The position numbers were made by a program, and so were the translations under genes. From an uncultured archaeon (GTDB lineage Archaea; Asgardarchaeota; Thorarchaeia; Thorarchaeales; CAZPUN01), in contig CAZPUN010000053.1 of assembly GCA_964589775.1 (NCBI GenBank), positions 1-9,285 of the forward strand: 9,285 nucleotides of DNA. Direction: 5' to 3'. This document shows, piece by piece, positions 1-5,223 of this stretch (position 1 is the first letter of the stretch; each line of letters starts with the position of its first letter). The notes under the pieces were generated by a model that was given only the letters and a program-made list of their open reading frames with translations, did no database searches and had not been told where the DNA came from.

Positions 1-57
1 TGGGAGTTTTAATTTGGAGGGGGCATCGTAGTCGGAAATGGTGCCAATAAAATTCAT
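1..57 (-). CDS. Possible N-terminus of a gene running off the left edge (MNFIGTISDYDAPSKLKLP...)
   Basis: ATG at 57-55 opens 19 sense codons up to position 1, with an in-frame TGA upstream. Too short to assign and no clear SD. Confidence 0.3.
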   Translation of the reverse strand, partial: MNFIGTISDYDAPSKLKLP

Positions 58-452
58 GATTTTGTCTATTATTGCGTAATATCAACTACAGTTATCTGAT
101 AATCGCGGAAAAATACTATTTAGTTTTATATTTGGTATAAAAGCGAATAATTTCAAAAATATGGAATAAAGTGGTATTTGCGGGCATAATAGGGTTTCTG
201 GTTATAAAATATTAGTTATCAATTCTTTCGATCTGTGATTCATGCGGGTTCATTTTCGTCATAATATGCATATCGCGCAAAAATATGAAAAAAGGGTGAA
301 GAACACAAAAATAGAGATGGAAAAAATTAATTATCCCATAATATAATTTGAAGGAAACAATTAATGAGTTGAGCGATCAACAATGGATATGATGTTCATA
401 GGGTTTCATTATGGTTTGTTATGGAGGATCGAATTTGCGAAAATTAACACCA

Positions 453-555
453 TGGTTTAACGACCGAAGCGAGCATATTTGTTATACGAATTTCAAGGAC
501 ATATCGCCTGCCAGTATGAAAATTGGTTTAACGACCGAAGCGAGCATATTTGTTA
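453..555. repeat. Two identical 32-bp direct repeats (TGGTTTAACGACCGAAGCGAGCATATTTGTTA) separated by a unique 39-bp spacer; CRISPR-like mini-array geometry
   Basis: Exact copies at 453-484 and 524-555, spacer 485-523. The 71-bp period is not a multiple of 3. The repeat is directly visible; CRISPR identity is unproven (two copies, no cas genes). Confidence 0.9.
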
Positions 556-663
556 CAGATGATGTTGAATTAATGTTTGTGAGTTTTAGCTTTTATGCAT
601 AATAGTAGAGATTTTACTACCTCTGAGAGCAAGCATTATTTTTCAAAGCGGTGATGAATTGCA

Positions 664-677
664 GAAAAGTTTATTAA
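664..677 (+). promoter_or_regulatory. Archaeal BRE-TATA promoter (GAAAAG-TTTATTAA), predicted start near 697-701
   Basis: Purine-rich BRE directly followed by TTTATTAA (670-677). The expected start coincides with the beginning of the GC-richer pairable segment, about 245 nt before the next start codon. Confidence 0.55.
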
Positions 678-690
678 TGATTATACATCT

Positions 691-828
691 CTTAATGAAG
701 CTAAACATACTAAAGGGCTGAAGCGATAATCAAAGCTCCCTTATCGGGGCAATGCGAGTATAAGCGTGAAATGTCTACCGCTGGATAGTCTATACTCAGG
801 ACCCTCGCATTTCAATGCAGGAAGTCTG
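691..828 (+). mobile_element. IS200/IS605-family right-end / tnpB 3' remnant (omegaRNA-like scaffold)
   Basis: GGACCCTCGCATTTCAATGCAGGAAGTCTG (799-828) forms a bulged hairpin with a TTCA loop. It resembles archaeal IS605 right ends as I recall them (GGAACCCTCGCCCTTTAGGGCGGGGAGGAAGTCAG-like). 691-718 reads LNEAK-NILKG if one A is restored, like the TnpB C-terminal NAAxNI motif. Confidence 0.5.
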
Positions 829-904
829 TTTGGATAGCGTCTTCAATTACCGCTACAGAGGACAAAATATTGAAAAGTAGCCCGCAAGGATCGCGGATTG
901 AAAT
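693..904 (+). ncRNA. Putative structured non-coding RNA, family unassigned
   Basis: No long ORF and an upstream promoter. Pairings: GCTCC(735-739)/GGGGC(746-750), CGATAA(724-729)/TTATCG(741-746), AATGCGAG(751-758)/CTCGCATT(804-811), GAGTATA(756-762)/TATACTC(791-797), AGCG(763-766)/CGCT(779-782), 693-710 imperfectly with 824-849, GCTAC(852-856)/GTAGC(877-881), CCGC(882-885)/GCGG(893-896). Confidence 0.55.
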
Positions 905-943
905 AAAGAAATAAAGAAAGAAGTGAAACAATAGGTGAATGCG

Positions 944-1549
944 ATGCGAGTAGATGATCTACGAGCTCTTTATAATCATAGGAAGAGGGTAATTATACTT
1001 TTGATAATTATAAATGAACTCATAGATGCAGTCATTATCATTACGAGTTTGGATTTTTCGAATATGGTTAATTTCATTCGTATAATTTCGGTTGCTATGA
1101 TAACATCATTTATATCTATTATTTTGCTAAACAAATATCTAACGTACAATACAAGTCTTACTATCATTAACGACATTGAAGAAATATTCGAAGATTTCAC
1201 ATTGTTTGGCGATAAGATTTTTGCGAAATATAAGGCGGACGACAGGATCTTTCTTATCATTAAGCTTGGATTTTTCGGTTCTGCGCAATACTATTTATTT
1301 GCATTCAAGAATTTCGTAAGCACCGAGGAATCCGAAAAATATCCACGCATGAGTAAAGGAACCAGAACAGAGCTTGATGGTTTTAAGTTTTATAAAATGA
1401 CTGGAAACTTTGTGATTCCCACGCCAAATGGTAATATAGACGGCGAAGGAACCGCATTAATGTTTAATAATATTCACTTAAGAATGTCGAGAAAGTTGCC
1501 CAAGGATGCTTTGAAACTGTTAATTGAAACCATACGAAATGAGCTTTAA
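944..1549 (+). CDS. Hypothetical membrane protein: two N-terminal TM helices plus a soluble beta-rich C-terminal domain
   Basis: ORF track 935..1549. AGGTGA (933-938) looks like the SD, so ATG 944 is the preferred start. Two hydrophobic segments (VIILLIIINELIDAVIIIT; FIRIISVAMITSFISIILL). Confidence 0.85.
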   Translation: MRVDDLRALYNHRKRVIILLIIINELIDAVIIITSLDFSNMVNFIRIISVAMITSFISIILLNKYLTYNTSLTIINDIEEIFEDFTLFGDKIFAKYKADDRIFLIIKLGFFGSAQYYLFAFKNFVSTEESEKYPRMSKGTRTELDGFKFYKMTGNFVIPTPNGNIDGEGTALMFNNIHLRMSRKLPKDALKLLIETIRNEL

Positions 1550-1551
1550 AG

Positions 1552-1573
1552 TTTCTTTCCATTTTTATTTTTT
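1552..1573 (+). terminator. Archaeal-type U-rich terminator
   Basis: TTTCTTTCCATTTTTATTTTTT immediately after the stop codon at 1549. Confidence 0.5.
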
Positions 1574-1685
1574 GCATCTTTAAAAATCTAATAACTCTGT
1601 CTTCAATGTGTATTGTATGGTGAAGGTTTCTAATATAGCAAAAGATAAATCCAAATTAGGAATGCCTAAATTCGAAGTGAATAAT

Positions 1686-2198
1686 ATGAGTAGCGATATA
1701 AACCATAGTGAAAAAATGAATATTGAGGAGTTTCTTGAACTTGTGGATAAGGATCCCCAGACGGCTCGCATGATTGCATATGTCCAGTTAAAAAATCCTA
1801 AAATTAAATCAATATCTTCTACAGGGCTCCGATTCTTCCTAGAATATATTTACATAATAACTTTCTACAAAACCTCAAAGAATAATAATGAGCTTGAAGA
1901 GTCGTTATTACCAATTCTTGAAAAATATGGTACCGATGTCATTAATACATTTACCACTCGATATATCCGCGAAAAGATCAAAAAAGATGAAGAGATGTTC
2001 ATCACTGCTGCATACTTTGGATTATATGTATTCATGATGTATATCTCCGTTCTGAAAGACTTGAAAAAATATGATGAAAAGCAATTCGCAAGAATTAAAG
2101 AAATAATGAAATCAATTTTACAAGACTATATTAAAATTGATAAAGAGGACAAAGGATTGCGTGAATACTGGAAATCGATATATGGCGAGGAAGTTTAA
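1686..2198 (+). CDS. Hypothetical alpha-helical protein
   Basis: ORF track 1608..2198. ATG 1686 follows SD-like GAAGTGA and is the preferred start, but this is uncertain. No recognisable motif. Confidence 0.8.
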   Translation: MSSDINHSEKMNIEEFLELVDKDPQTARMIAYVQLKNPKIKSISSTGLRFFLEYIYIITFYKTSKNNNELEESLLPILEKYGTDVINTFTTRYIREKIKKDEEMFITAAYFGLYVFMMYISVLKDLKKYDEKQFARIKEIMKSILQDYIKIDKEDKGLREYWKSIYGEEV

Positions 2199-2464
2199 AA
2201 AATTCTATTATATAATTAATACATGTGATTTTCGGTCGTATTACATTTTGTCATAATTTCACAGCTTTTATTTCGAATTTTCGAATCAATCAATTGATAC
2301 CTTCCCGATTTGGGCATCGTAAAAAAACATAAAAAATTTGAGTGCTATTAATCGATTTTTTCATTTTTTATTAATATGTTTATTCAAAATTCAAAAAAAT
2401 ATGTGAAATTTTTATTGGGTAGTTAATATCATATCATTTATTGGAATATTTAGGGGGGTATTAT

Positions 2465-3442
2465 ATGAAACCTGAAGAACGATATGGAAAGCTTGTACAT
2501 TCAGCTGAAAATGCTGCAAAATTGGGATTATTTGAAGAGGCATATAAACGATATTTAAAAGCGGCAGAATCTGCTATCTCGCTAAATAGAATGCAAGAAG
2601 CGTATGTTTGGTATTTTCTTGCTTCAATATATAAATGTAATAGTTCAATAGATGATGAAAAGTATTTACTGAGTAGCCTTTATAATTTATATGAGACGTA
2701 TAATAAGCATCCGGTGGATAAAGTTACGGTATATATGCTTGGGGGTGCTTTTGGAGAATTCCCGGCGAAAAGATTTGTAAATGAAGCAATTGGCTTGCTT
2801 GCTCTTAATAATGCTAAGCTTACAAATATGGGGCTTGAAGAAATTGTTGAAAACCTGGATAAAGCAACGAAAGCATTTATGGAAATAGGGAATGATTATC
2901 TGTTTTATTCTAAATATTTAAGTATCATAAACAAGCGAGTTACTGCAAATTACGCTGCATTGATCAGTGAAGCAAATAAAGCGTATCTCCTTGGAGAGTA
3001 TTATAGTGATATTGACCCTACAAAAGCAGTAGAACATTATATGATCGCATCTCGAGCGTATAGAACTGCAAGGCGAATGGATATTTATCGAGATGTAATC
3101 AAATTAATTCAAGGTGTTCGAGTAACGAAAAAATGCTGGATTTGTGGAAGAGAAATTCAGGGCGAAAAGCACTTTGTATATTTAGATGCGAAGCTTGGTC
3201 CATATTTTGAAAAACTAATTGAGAAAAATCAAGATAAGCATTCGATTCATGGTAATAAAATCGTTGTATGTAATGTATGCTATTCTGCAATCGATAATAT
3301 TGTACAAGAGGAGCAAAGAAAATTACGTCAATTAATAGACCGATTACTCCAATTGGAACGTACTGTCTATTATATGAAGAAGGTACTTGATGCCATTCAA
3401 GTTGGTGGAACGGCTCGAAATGCATTTGGGGGTGGGTACTAA
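2465..3442 (+). CDS. TPR/alpha-solenoid-like protein with a C-terminal 4-Cys zinc site (CWIC...CNVC) and a coiled-coil tail
   Basis: SD AGGGGGG before ATG 2465. TPR-like patterns (FEEAYKRYLKAAE; AYLLGEYY...PTKAVEHYMIA), two CxxC pairs about 45 aa apart, and a heptad-like tail (LRQLIDRLLQLERTV). Confidence 0.9.
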   Translation: MKPEERYGKLVHSAENAAKLGLFEEAYKRYLKAAESAISLNRMQEAYVWYFLASIYKCNSSIDDEKYLLSSLYNLYETYNKHPVDKVTVYMLGGAFGEFPAKRFVNEAIGLLALNNAKLTNMGLEEIVENLDKATKAFMEIGNDYLFYSKYLSIINKRVTANYAALISEANKAYLLGEYYSDIDPTKAVEHYMIASRAYRTARRMDIYRDVIKLIQGVRVTKKCWICGREIQGEKHFVYLDAKLGPYFEKLIEKNQDKHSIHGNKIVVCNVCYSAIDNIVQEEQRKLRQLIDRLLQLERTVYYMKKVLDAIQVGGTARNAFGGGY

Positions 3443-5223
3443 TGGTTGACATCCAGCAATTATCCTGTGCGAATTGTGGAGCTCCATTGGAGTATAAAGA
3501 GGGTATAGAATTCATACGATGTAAATATTGTGGATATCAAAATGAAATATCAACTGCCAAAGAACGTATGGATAAATTAATCGAAGAAACCAAAAAGTGG
3601 CTCGAACAATTTTATATTAGCGGCTCCTCAACTATTGATGTCGGCATGCGTGCAATGTATTTTAAGGATAAAATATTTCCAGAAATTGTAGGTGAATTTA
3701 CAGAAATTGTACGAGATCGTATAGAACTCATAGACTATCCAATTGTTGGAAGTCCAGTGTTTAATGTCATTGATTACTTGAAATCGGAAATCTCATGGAA
3801 AATCTCCGACAGTAAGGAATTTGAGGATTTCGCATTTAAATTAAAGAATCCTGAAATTGAAGGATTTGCAACAACAAAGAAAGCGAAGGTACTTCTAAAG
3901 GCTCTTGAATTCAGATGCTATCATATTCCTACAACTCTAACCATAAACTATCTTGCGAACAAAACAGATCTCGATAGTCTTAAACTACTTGTTCAAAATC
4001 TCGAACGAATTAGTAGTGAAGCGCATGAGATATACCAGTCTATCGGTGACCCTGATGGGAAAATTTACGAAATCTTTTCTGAACGTTACAGAATTGGAAA
4101 AGAATTCACTCAACTTTTAATTAATAAGATTCGAGACCGTAAGCCATTTGAGGACGAAGAAATTCAAGGATACATATCTGAAACCCAGAAACTAATCAAT
4201 ACTTTATCCGAATCTGAAAATGTTTCCGTGGTCGATAAGATTGCACTAGAACAAGGTCTAAAGTATGATATTGAGGCATACAAAGTTCATATGAGTATTG
4301 TATCACTTTATTCAATCGGTAAGCTCAATTATGATGATTTTGTTAGAAGCTTCGAATCTTACGTTCGAAATGCTTTGATCTATCCGCGAAAGACCTCAAG
4401 CTTCAAAAATGTATTCGGAATCGAACGTGCCGAGGTTCCTGAATGGTTCACCGACAGATATGACCTCAGTAAAATCTCTTGGTTCTCTATGATTTTGAAA
4501 AAGAATTATCGGCTAAAATCTATTAAGATTGCAGGTCTTGACGAGGCAAACAGACTTATTCAACAAAGGATTCGTGGGGATTATTCTATTTTCTTGTATC
4601 CGTTTTACTTGCTAAAAGTTAAGGCGATCTTGAAATCCGGATTCTTATTCTGGAAGAAAGCGAACGATTATGAATTTTATACACTTGTTGATGCAACGTT
4701 TAATCAGCTTACTAAACCATTCCTAGATCTTGACTTTGCAGTTTTTACATCTCCCGGATTCAAAAAGGCTTTGAAAACCCGTGAAGGCAGAAATGTTCAG
4801 TCTTTAATAAATCTAAGAGAAAGTTCTATTGACCCTCGACATATTGTTATACCACCGAGCGTAGATGAATTGGATGCTGAAAATCTTTATCGTTACGCCT
4901 ACATATTAAAGGAAGACGAGTATATCGCACAGAAAAAAGACGAAACACTTGGCGTGGCTTTCTCTAAGTTTTTGGCTAAGAAGTTGAAGGATCTTGGAGA
5001 CCAATTAACACAAGGCATTTTCAATATTTCAGGTTCTTTCGCTCGGAAAGGGTTTGATGCATCTGAGGTTAAAGGAGTAGTTCCAAAAGTGATTGATCTT
5101 TTATACATACCATTAATTGCAACTTCAAACAAAATAATGATTGTAGGGCGTCAATTTGGAATCGATGAAATTCCTCAACGTGCTGATGTAATAAATGCCT
5201 TTTTGAAATTTGCAAAAAAATAG
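3442..5223 (+). CDS. Large protein with an N-terminal zinc ribbon (CANCGAPL...CKYCG), helical middle and a C-terminal region with LYPFY/LYIP motifs
   Basis: 593-aa ORF. TAATG stop/start overlap with the upstream gene at 3440-3444, preceded by a G-rich SD. Confidence 0.92.
   Translation: MVDIQQLSCANCGAPLEYKEGIEFIRCKYCGYQNEISTAKERMDKLIEETKKWLEQFYISGSSTIDVGMRAMYFKDKIFPEIVGEFTEIVRDRIELIDYPIVGSPVFNVIDYLKSEISWKISDSKEFEDFAFKLKNPEIEGFATTKKAKVLLKALEFRCYHIPTTLTINYLANKTDLDSLKLLVQNLERISSEAHEIYQSIGDPDGKIYEIFSERYRIGKEFTQLLINKIRDRKPFEDEEIQGYISETQKLINTLSESENVSVVDKIALEQGLKYDIEAYKVHMSIVSLYSIGKLNYDDFVRSFESYVRNALIYPRKTSSFKNVFGIERAEVPEWFTDRYDLSKISWFSMILKKNYRLKSIKIAGLDEANRLIQQRIRGDYSIFLYPFYLLKVKAILKSGFLFWKKANDYEFYTLVDATFNQLTKPFLDLDFAVFTSPGFKKALKTREGRNVQSLINLRESSIDPRHIVIPPSVDELDAENLYRYAYILKEDEYIAQKKDETLGVAFSKFLAKKLKDLGDQLTQGIFNISGSFARKGFDASEVKGVVPKVIDLLYIPLIATSNKIMIVGRQFGIDEIPQRADVINAFLKFAKK

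Follow-up and report, generated by a model that had tools for sequence, protein, structure and literature searches.

Two identical 32-nt direct repeats separated by a sequence of spacer size, on a contig that carries no cas gene, raise the question of whether such a locus is a minimal guide array, a pair of recombination sites or the trace of another process. The first two possibilities had been proposed in an initial annotation, which also placed a putative guide-RNA scaffold next to the repeats. Here, we examined the locus (positions 453-555) within the whole stretch of DNA analysed (hereafter the window; 9,285 nt), which is the entire 9.3-kb contig C53 of a 2.16-Mb metagenome-assembled genome (MAG; 64 contigs, 96.75% complete) from a hydrothermal-vent metagenome. 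The presence of TrmB, TFIIE and HVO_A0114-type regulators together with a type I-A operon identifies the MAG as an archaeon. It also gave a profilin match, which none of 14 control prokaryotes did, and is an Asgard-like archaeon.

Most ORFs of the contig belong to no known family. Searches against Pfam, NCBIfam, PADLOC and PHROGs recognised DUF1684 and an N6/N4 DNA methylase, and found no cas, transposase, phage or recombinase family among the ORFs of C53. An Rfam scan of the whole window gave no match at E <= 1, and no tRNA genes are present in the window. Four co-oriented genes encoding proteins of 201, 196, 333 and 593 aa occupy positions 944-5223, directly after a solitary CRISPR repeat. 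None of them has a credible match in the same four databases, although the 593-aa protein has an N-terminal zinc ribbon, and the protein of ORF 935-1549 has no relative in metagenome_contigs.

The beginning of the window is shared with contig C50 (Table 1), in which the parts follow one another in the same order (element, leader-like sequence, solitary repeat, gene). The JGI contig Ga0256914_1094002 reaches 245 nt further upstream than the window, into sequence missing from the bin. Given the 193-nt start common to C53 and C50 and the longer JGI contig, the MAG lacks one or more stretches upstream of the two loci.

Table 1. Coordinates of the two-repeat units in the genome and of other features in the window (C plus number, contig of the MAG)
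Feature	Coordinates	Strand	Duplication	Insert	Remarks
Unit	C5:72-174		31 nt	41 nt
Unit	C5:12753-12864		37 nt	38 nt
Unit	C7:54603-54699		29 nt	39 nt
Unit	C21:44375-44484		37 nt (1 mismatch)	36 nt
Unit	C61:26376-26485		37 nt	36 nt
Unit	C50:1926-2030		33 nt (2 mismatches)	39 nt
Unit	window 453-555		32 nt	39 nt
Segment with 98% identity to the beginning of C50	window 1-193	+			C50 is a paralogous locus with another mini-unit
Copy 1 of the duplicated target ('repeat')	window 453-484	+	32 nt		Repeat finding and whole-genome pattern search; border sharp
Unique insert ('spacer')	window 485-523	+		39 nt	Unlike flanks; no second copy in the genome; fold unremarkable
Copy 2 of the duplicated target	window 524-555	+	32 nt		100% identical to copy 1
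TTAC directly 5' of the dispersed element	window 614-617	+			Place of the IS608-type target/left cleavage site; alignment of copies
Decayed IS200/IS605-like non-autonomous element, short class (~215 nt)	window 618-832	+			nhmmer, covariance model, IS608-like hairpin distances
Short segment upstream of the solitary repeat	window 833-868	+			Common to C26 (two copies there)
Solitary native 36-nt CRISPR repeat, 3 mismatches, ending ATTGAAAT	window 869-904	+			Many array contigs of the run, with 35-40-nt spacers, join here
A-rich trailer	window 905-925	+			Common to other solitary repeats and the C54 array end
Gene for a 201-aa protein, first downstream	window 944-1549	+			Family unassigned; weak match to a 4TM effector model only

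Structure of the unit at 453-555

The two perfect 32-bp repeats and the unrelated 39-bp spacer described initially were confirmed by a pattern search of the genome, by three assemblies and by the contigs of the sequencing run. The two copies start 71 nt apart. As had been suggested, the repeat was searched in the full 2.16-Mb genome, and no third copy was found with up to 3 mismatches tolerated; neither is there a degenerate copy near the unit, the best match (15-17 of 32 positions) being at background. By simple arithmetic, about 1e-12 exact 32-mer pairs would be expected by chance in 9.3 kb. Outside the 32 nt, identity drops at once to the random level, and the insert is 21-28% identical to flanks of equal length. 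As held in the initial annotation, a simple tandem duplication is excluded.

The same structure was observed in JGI contig Ga0256914_1094002, which has 4 differences from the window upstream, and in an ENA MEGAHIT contig, and the insert is identical in three assemblies. A Logan contig of the public run covers positions 455-553 at a depth of 7.5, with depths of 8.7 and 6.0 in the flanks. No joint bypassing the insert is present in the contigs of this run, which drop rare variants. The unit reflects neither chance nor an artefact; an assembly error, raised initially as a possible objection and suggested by the shortness of C53 and its start in sequence repeated on C50, is hardly credible given the agreement of three assemblies and the run contig at flank-like depth. 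The search for an empty-site allele yielded nothing but identical copies of the locus, and positions 200-2200 of the window had no DNA match in 40 genomes of the same order. A search of sequencing runs for the locus listed no RNA run.

The unit has the CRISPR-like dimensions that had been pointed out: its repeats fall within the 23-50 nt expected of CRISPR arrays, its unique insert is of similar size, and two repeats with one spacer make the smallest array possible. Its 39-nt insert matches the spacers of a native array of the genome (38-40 nt). The 32-nt repeat was compared with the two native CRISPR repeats, and similarity was at background level for both the 36-nt (p = 0.29) and the 30-nt repeat (p = 0.39). 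It contains neither the ATTGAAAG handle nor the small stem of the native repeat, and its fold z-scores (-0.5 and +0.3) are not notable. The near-terminal AAAC noted on the minus strand does exist, but is merely the reverse complement of the GTTTAA found two bases into the repeat; the native repeat starts with GTTGAA, and the 30-nt repeat, read as its reverse complement, with GTTAAA. Partial matches of the insert within its own genome are chance 12-14-mers only, and its cores have no exact match in viral_contigs or genome_contigs. The proposed search of the spacer against host and viral sequences thus revealed no protospacer.

Seven units with unrelated repeats in one genome

Close direct repeats were sought throughout the genome, which revealed seven isolated two-repeat, one-insert units, each with a different repeat (Table 1). 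The remaining close repeat pairs are either coding tandem repeats, with periods that are multiples of 3, or parts of two real arrays. Duplications range from 29 to 37 nt (29-33 nt in four units and 37 nt in the other three) and inserts from 36 to 41 nt, and every border is sharp. The finding of six other units with six unrelated repeats points to a process, namely insertion with duplication of the target, rather than to a repeat that is read by one protein.

In three units (C61, C50 and C21), the duplicated segment is ordinary pre-existing sequence. On C61 the 3' end of a gene has been duplicated, with copy 1 reading into the insert (...NGA, stop) and copy 2 retaining the original ending ...NGDDSE followed by the stop. 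On C50, one copy carries the stop of a plus-strand gene, putatively GDT1-like as judged from its sequence, and the other copy carries the stop of a convergent macro-domain gene; here, gene ends that once overlapped were separated and both were regenerated. The C21 duplication is the right-end hairpin of an IS-like element; the other ~43 copies of this element have the hairpin only once. Duplicated segments of this kind, gene ends and a hairpin, argue for insertion with target-site duplication and not for repeats selected to be read by Cas proteins.

The inserts of the seven units are unrelated to their flanks and to one another, and have no common motif. Folded with RNA parameters, only one of the seven forms a hairpin. 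A hairpin mobile element as the inserted DNA was considered and dropped, as the inserts are mutually unrelated and only this one folds. When all seven inserts were compared with their own genome by BLAST, only chance 12-16-mers were found, and viral_contigs contained no exact match to the 22-24-nt cores of five inserts.

G or C is present at 10 of the 14 duplication ends, compared with a genome GC content of 35% (p = 0.006). Two units are located on the 13-kb type I-A cas contig C5, where one precedes csa5 by 240 nt. Two units, including that at 453-555, are no more than 700 nt away from solitary native repeats (p ~6e-4), and three lie within 70 nt of an end of the IS-like element (p = 0.004, even when compared with intergenic DNA only). 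Resemblance of the duplicated sequences to the native repeats, which had been expected, did not reach significance (Fisher p = 0.07). Only one unit, C5b, stands out, and the matches noted by eye in the others were dropped.

Shorter isolated duplications (13-28 nt) at the same spacing show no excess, which suggests that the size of the duplication is set in a ruler-like manner. The lengths of duplication and insert are negatively correlated (r = -0.80, p = 0.03, n = 7), so that 68-75 nt are gained per event (mean, 72 nt). This correlation might reflect the geometry of an integration complex or some other mechanism.

Native CRISPR-Cas loci and the dispersed element next to the unit

One native CRISPR array is split over contigs C48 (leader end) and C54 (trailer end) and has 36-nt repeats and 38-40-nt spacers; the spacers in the array contigs of the run measure 35-40 nt. 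Its 36-nt repeat was not found in 399 other genomes of the phylum or in genome_contigs. The second array (C64:63079-63339) combines 30-nt repeats with spacers that are unusually long (50-52 nt). It is cut off by the end of the contig, and there are no cas genes within 12 kb. No cas genes adjoin the native arrays. A type I-A interference operon, csa5-cas7-cas5a-cas8a/csx9-cas3'-cas3'' (HD)-csa3, was found on contig C5 (1-13062), together with no adaptation genes on that contig, and is bracketed by the units at 72-174 and 12753-12864. Cas6 and type III RAMP clusters are also present in the MAG. Searches for cas1, cas2 and cas4 (PF01867, PF09827 and PF01930) found none of them in the 96.75%-complete bin, and Cas1 was detected in 11 of 25 relatives of the same order, often at contig ends.

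The CRISPR-like feature nearest to the unit is the solitary repeat at 869-904, which lies 314 nt downstream of copy 2. Six such solitary native repeats, with 3-6 mismatches, occur in the genome (window 869-925, C26:4656, C30:5358, C40:13479, C44:5908 and C50:1260). A true leader is located upstream of four of the six, the A-rich trailer is shared by most of them, and in most cases an ORF on the same strand begins ~12-75 nt downstream. These repeats may represent arrays that have been emptied, or else leader promoters and Cas6-cleavable 5' UTRs that have been re-used by ordinary genes.

The neighbouring segment at 618-832, for which a guide-RNA scaffold had been proposed, turned out to be one member of a dispersed family of about 44 copies resembling IS200/IS605 elements. 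Approximately 40 loci were found by nhmmer and 44 matches in the same genome by a covariance model, which gave no match in 30 relatives of the same order. The copies fall into a class of ~215 nt and one of ~260 nt. Alignment of the copies revealed a conserved TTAC at the left end, followed by 18 nt ending in AAAG and a hairpin (CATCGC...GCGGTG); at the right end, a similar hairpin (CCTCGC...GCGGGG) is followed by ~10 nt (AGTATGTCAG). In IS608, the left hairpin follows TTAC at a distance of 19 nt, AAAG is the guide tetranucleotide and right cleavage occurs 10 nt 3' of the right hairpin (PMC3201880). The family thus resembles IS608 and PATE elements in its left TTAC, the 18 nt ending in AAAG, the alike right hairpin with its ~10 nt and the dispersal of ~44 copies without target duplication. 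It differs from IS608 and from TnpB omega-RNAs in that tnpA (Y1, PF01797) and tnpB (PF07282) were not found in the bin, no RNA fold is conserved, and the family was seen only here among the 30 relatives searched.

Several other identities were considered for this segment. RNAalifold on 28 copies gave -0.85 kcal/mol and 4 pairs, i.e., practically no consensus fold, and covariation was weak with many A-C/C-A mismatches, so that a structured RNA was dropped. A CRISPR leader was also dropped, because the segment is unlike the true leader on C48. No conserved gene or nuclease gene lies beside the copies; a tracrRNA or omega-RNA scaffold, and with it the guide-RNA scaffold of the initial annotation, was rejected as there is no conserved fold, neighbouring nuclease gene or Rfam match. 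These results, together with the IS608 layout, indicate a decaying non-autonomous IS200/IS605-like element, whose family either has been mobilised by an element that is not in the assembly or is a fossil.

Origin of the units

It appears likely, although our confidence is limited, that the seven units, including that at 453-555, are scars of ectopic spacer integration by Cas1-Cas2 ('neo-CRISPR'). At each of the seven loci, a spacer-sized insert is flanked by two copies of its target, and the repeats are unrelated between loci. At 453-555, a 39-nt piece of DNA would have entered an ordinary intergenic site, and strand cuts staggered by 32 nt would then have been filled in, leaving two identical copies of the target around the insert. 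The enzyme would most likely be the CRISPR adaptation integrase Cas1-Cas2 acting off-target, and the same off-target event may have taken place at least seven times in this genome. To our knowledge, the Cas1-Cas2 integrase is the sole enzyme that inserts ~39 bp with a repeat-sized duplication.

Several observations support Cas1-Cas2 as the agent. The 39-nt insert has the size of native spacers, both in the bin and in the run contigs, and the duplications fall within a narrow range of 29-37 nt without a tail of shorter ones. Their ends tend to be G or C, as at off-target sites of Pyrococcus furiosus, where Cas1-Cas2 integrates at positions at which G/C are one repeat length apart (PMC6698737). 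In addition, units are found near the cas operon and near solitary native repeats, and Cas1 is present in relatives. On the other hand, cas1, cas2 and cas4 were not found in the bin, and the native arrays have no adjacent cas genes. The duplication range also exceeds what a strict ruler would give, and 32 nt corresponds to neither native repeat length (36 and 30 nt); the spacers of the 30-nt array are, moreover, 50-52 nt rather than 39 nt long. The lack of significant similarity between the duplicated sequences and native repeats, and the failure to find a protospacer for the inserts tried or an empty-site allele of 453-555, also count against the integrase. The same is true of the anticorrelation of lengths, which standard integrase models do not predict, and of the three units near the IS-like element, which hint at another link.

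Neo-CRISPR refers to off-target integration of spacers by Cas1-Cas2 (Nivala, Shipman and Church 2018, cited in PMC6698737 and bioRxiv 10.1101/148544). The units found here are similar in that a spacer-sized insert lies within a repeat-sized duplication of a non-CRISPR target, with G/C borders, exactly two repeats and one spacer, and a location near CRISPR-related loci. They differ in being natural events in an uncultured Asgard-like archaeon, seven in one genome, with duplications that vary from 29 to 37 nt rather than equalling the repeat, in a bin without adaptation genes, and with no repeat-like motif detected beyond the borders.

A possible but doubtful alternative is a CRISPR-independent, previously undescribed insertion process that adds ~72 nt as an insert and a compensating duplication, perhaps linked to IS200/IS605-like elements or to repair. 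Such a process would be consistent with the nearly constant sum and the negative correlation of the two lengths, with the three units next to element ends, and with a bin in which cas1 and cas2 were not detected. However, the inserts have no common motif, a hairpin is missing from all but one of the seven, and there is no broader family of shorter duplications at equal total length. A link with IS200/IS605 is opposed by the failure to find tnpA and tnpB in the bin, and transposition of these elements generates no target duplication (PMC3201880). Insert size, G/C borders and proximity to cas genes or native repeats all suit an integrase instead. Somewhat more doubtful is the specific proposal that a mechanism other than Cas1-Cas2 pastes ~36-41 nt with a duplication of 29-37 nt, always adding ~72 nt, or, alternatively, that an integrase acted on the C21 hairpin such that a transposon end seeded a CRISPR repeat.

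We consider it improbable that the unit is functional, either as an orphan mini-CRISPR or as a regulatory mini-array (CreA/CreR-like or trans-acting), and is transcribed and processed to one guide for the type I-A or type III complexes. It has the repeat-spacer-repeat geometry, Cas6 and effector genes of both types are present in the genome, and the GTTTAA near the start of the repeat resembles the native GTTGAA and GTTAAA starts. However, the repeat has neither the handle nor similarity to native repeats nor a significant fold, and the seven units contain seven unrelated repeats, which cannot all be substrates of one Cas6. Two of these 'repeats' (C61 and C50) are coding gene ends, C53 has no cas gene, and the chance matches of the insert elsewhere in the genome lend no support to a CreA-like role. 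The minimal guide array suggested initially is therefore not upheld, given a repeat that is unique and has no notable fold, a contig without cas genes and six further units with unrelated repeats.

Regulatory mini-arrays of the CreTA/CreR type have reportedly been described for type I systems. In these, the repeats are degenerate versions of that of the host and include its handles, and the spacer matches a promoter. The units described here likewise consist of two repeats and one spacer, and the C5a unit lies beside a type I cas operon, whereas their repeats bear no relation to that of the host and a matching target was not found. Mini-CRISPR arrays and solitary repeat units are also said to be carried by viruses and plasmids. 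Such arrays use the repeat of the host, and host Cas proteins can thus load them. The unit at 453-555 is similarly very short and has no adjacent cas genes, but its repeat is unique, and the window has its true solitary repeat unit at 869-904.

An att-like pair of recombination sites, the second suggestion of the initial annotation, or a remnant of a tandem duplication with a diverged middle is very improbable: the two identical direct repeats are all that speaks for it, but just 39 nt separate the supposed sites and no recombinase gene lies on C53, perfect repeats beside a wholly unrelated middle and flanks exclude later divergence, and the same geometry recurs at seven loci.

Under the favoured explanation, ectopic integration by Cas1-Cas2, the unit at 453-555 is itself probably inert, since the resident Cas6 and effector complexes are not expected to recognise its repeat. 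A genuine link with CRISPR is probable, but the unit would be a by-product of adaptation. In genome annotation, a two-repeat 'mini-array' whose repeat is unique should not be called a guide array.

Off-target spacer integration has been well documented only in vitro and in E. coli over-expressing Cas1-Cas2, and the evidence from nature has been called circumstantial (bioRxiv 10.1101/148544). The seven units are probably a new natural case of such neo-CRISPR or ectopic spacer integration. If Cas1-Cas2 is not responsible, the constant ~72-nt geometry would point to an unknown insertion mechanism. If it is, seven independent, dated-looking scars would form a natural record of the reaction in one Asgard-like genome; gene ends were rebuilt in two of them, and a third lies on a transposon hairpin. 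They would show the mutational cost of adaptation and which sites an archaeal integrase takes for repeats. They would also show the possible birth of new repeat families, and the C21 unit on the IS200/IS605 right-end hairpin would represent a transposon end seeding new CRISPR repeats.
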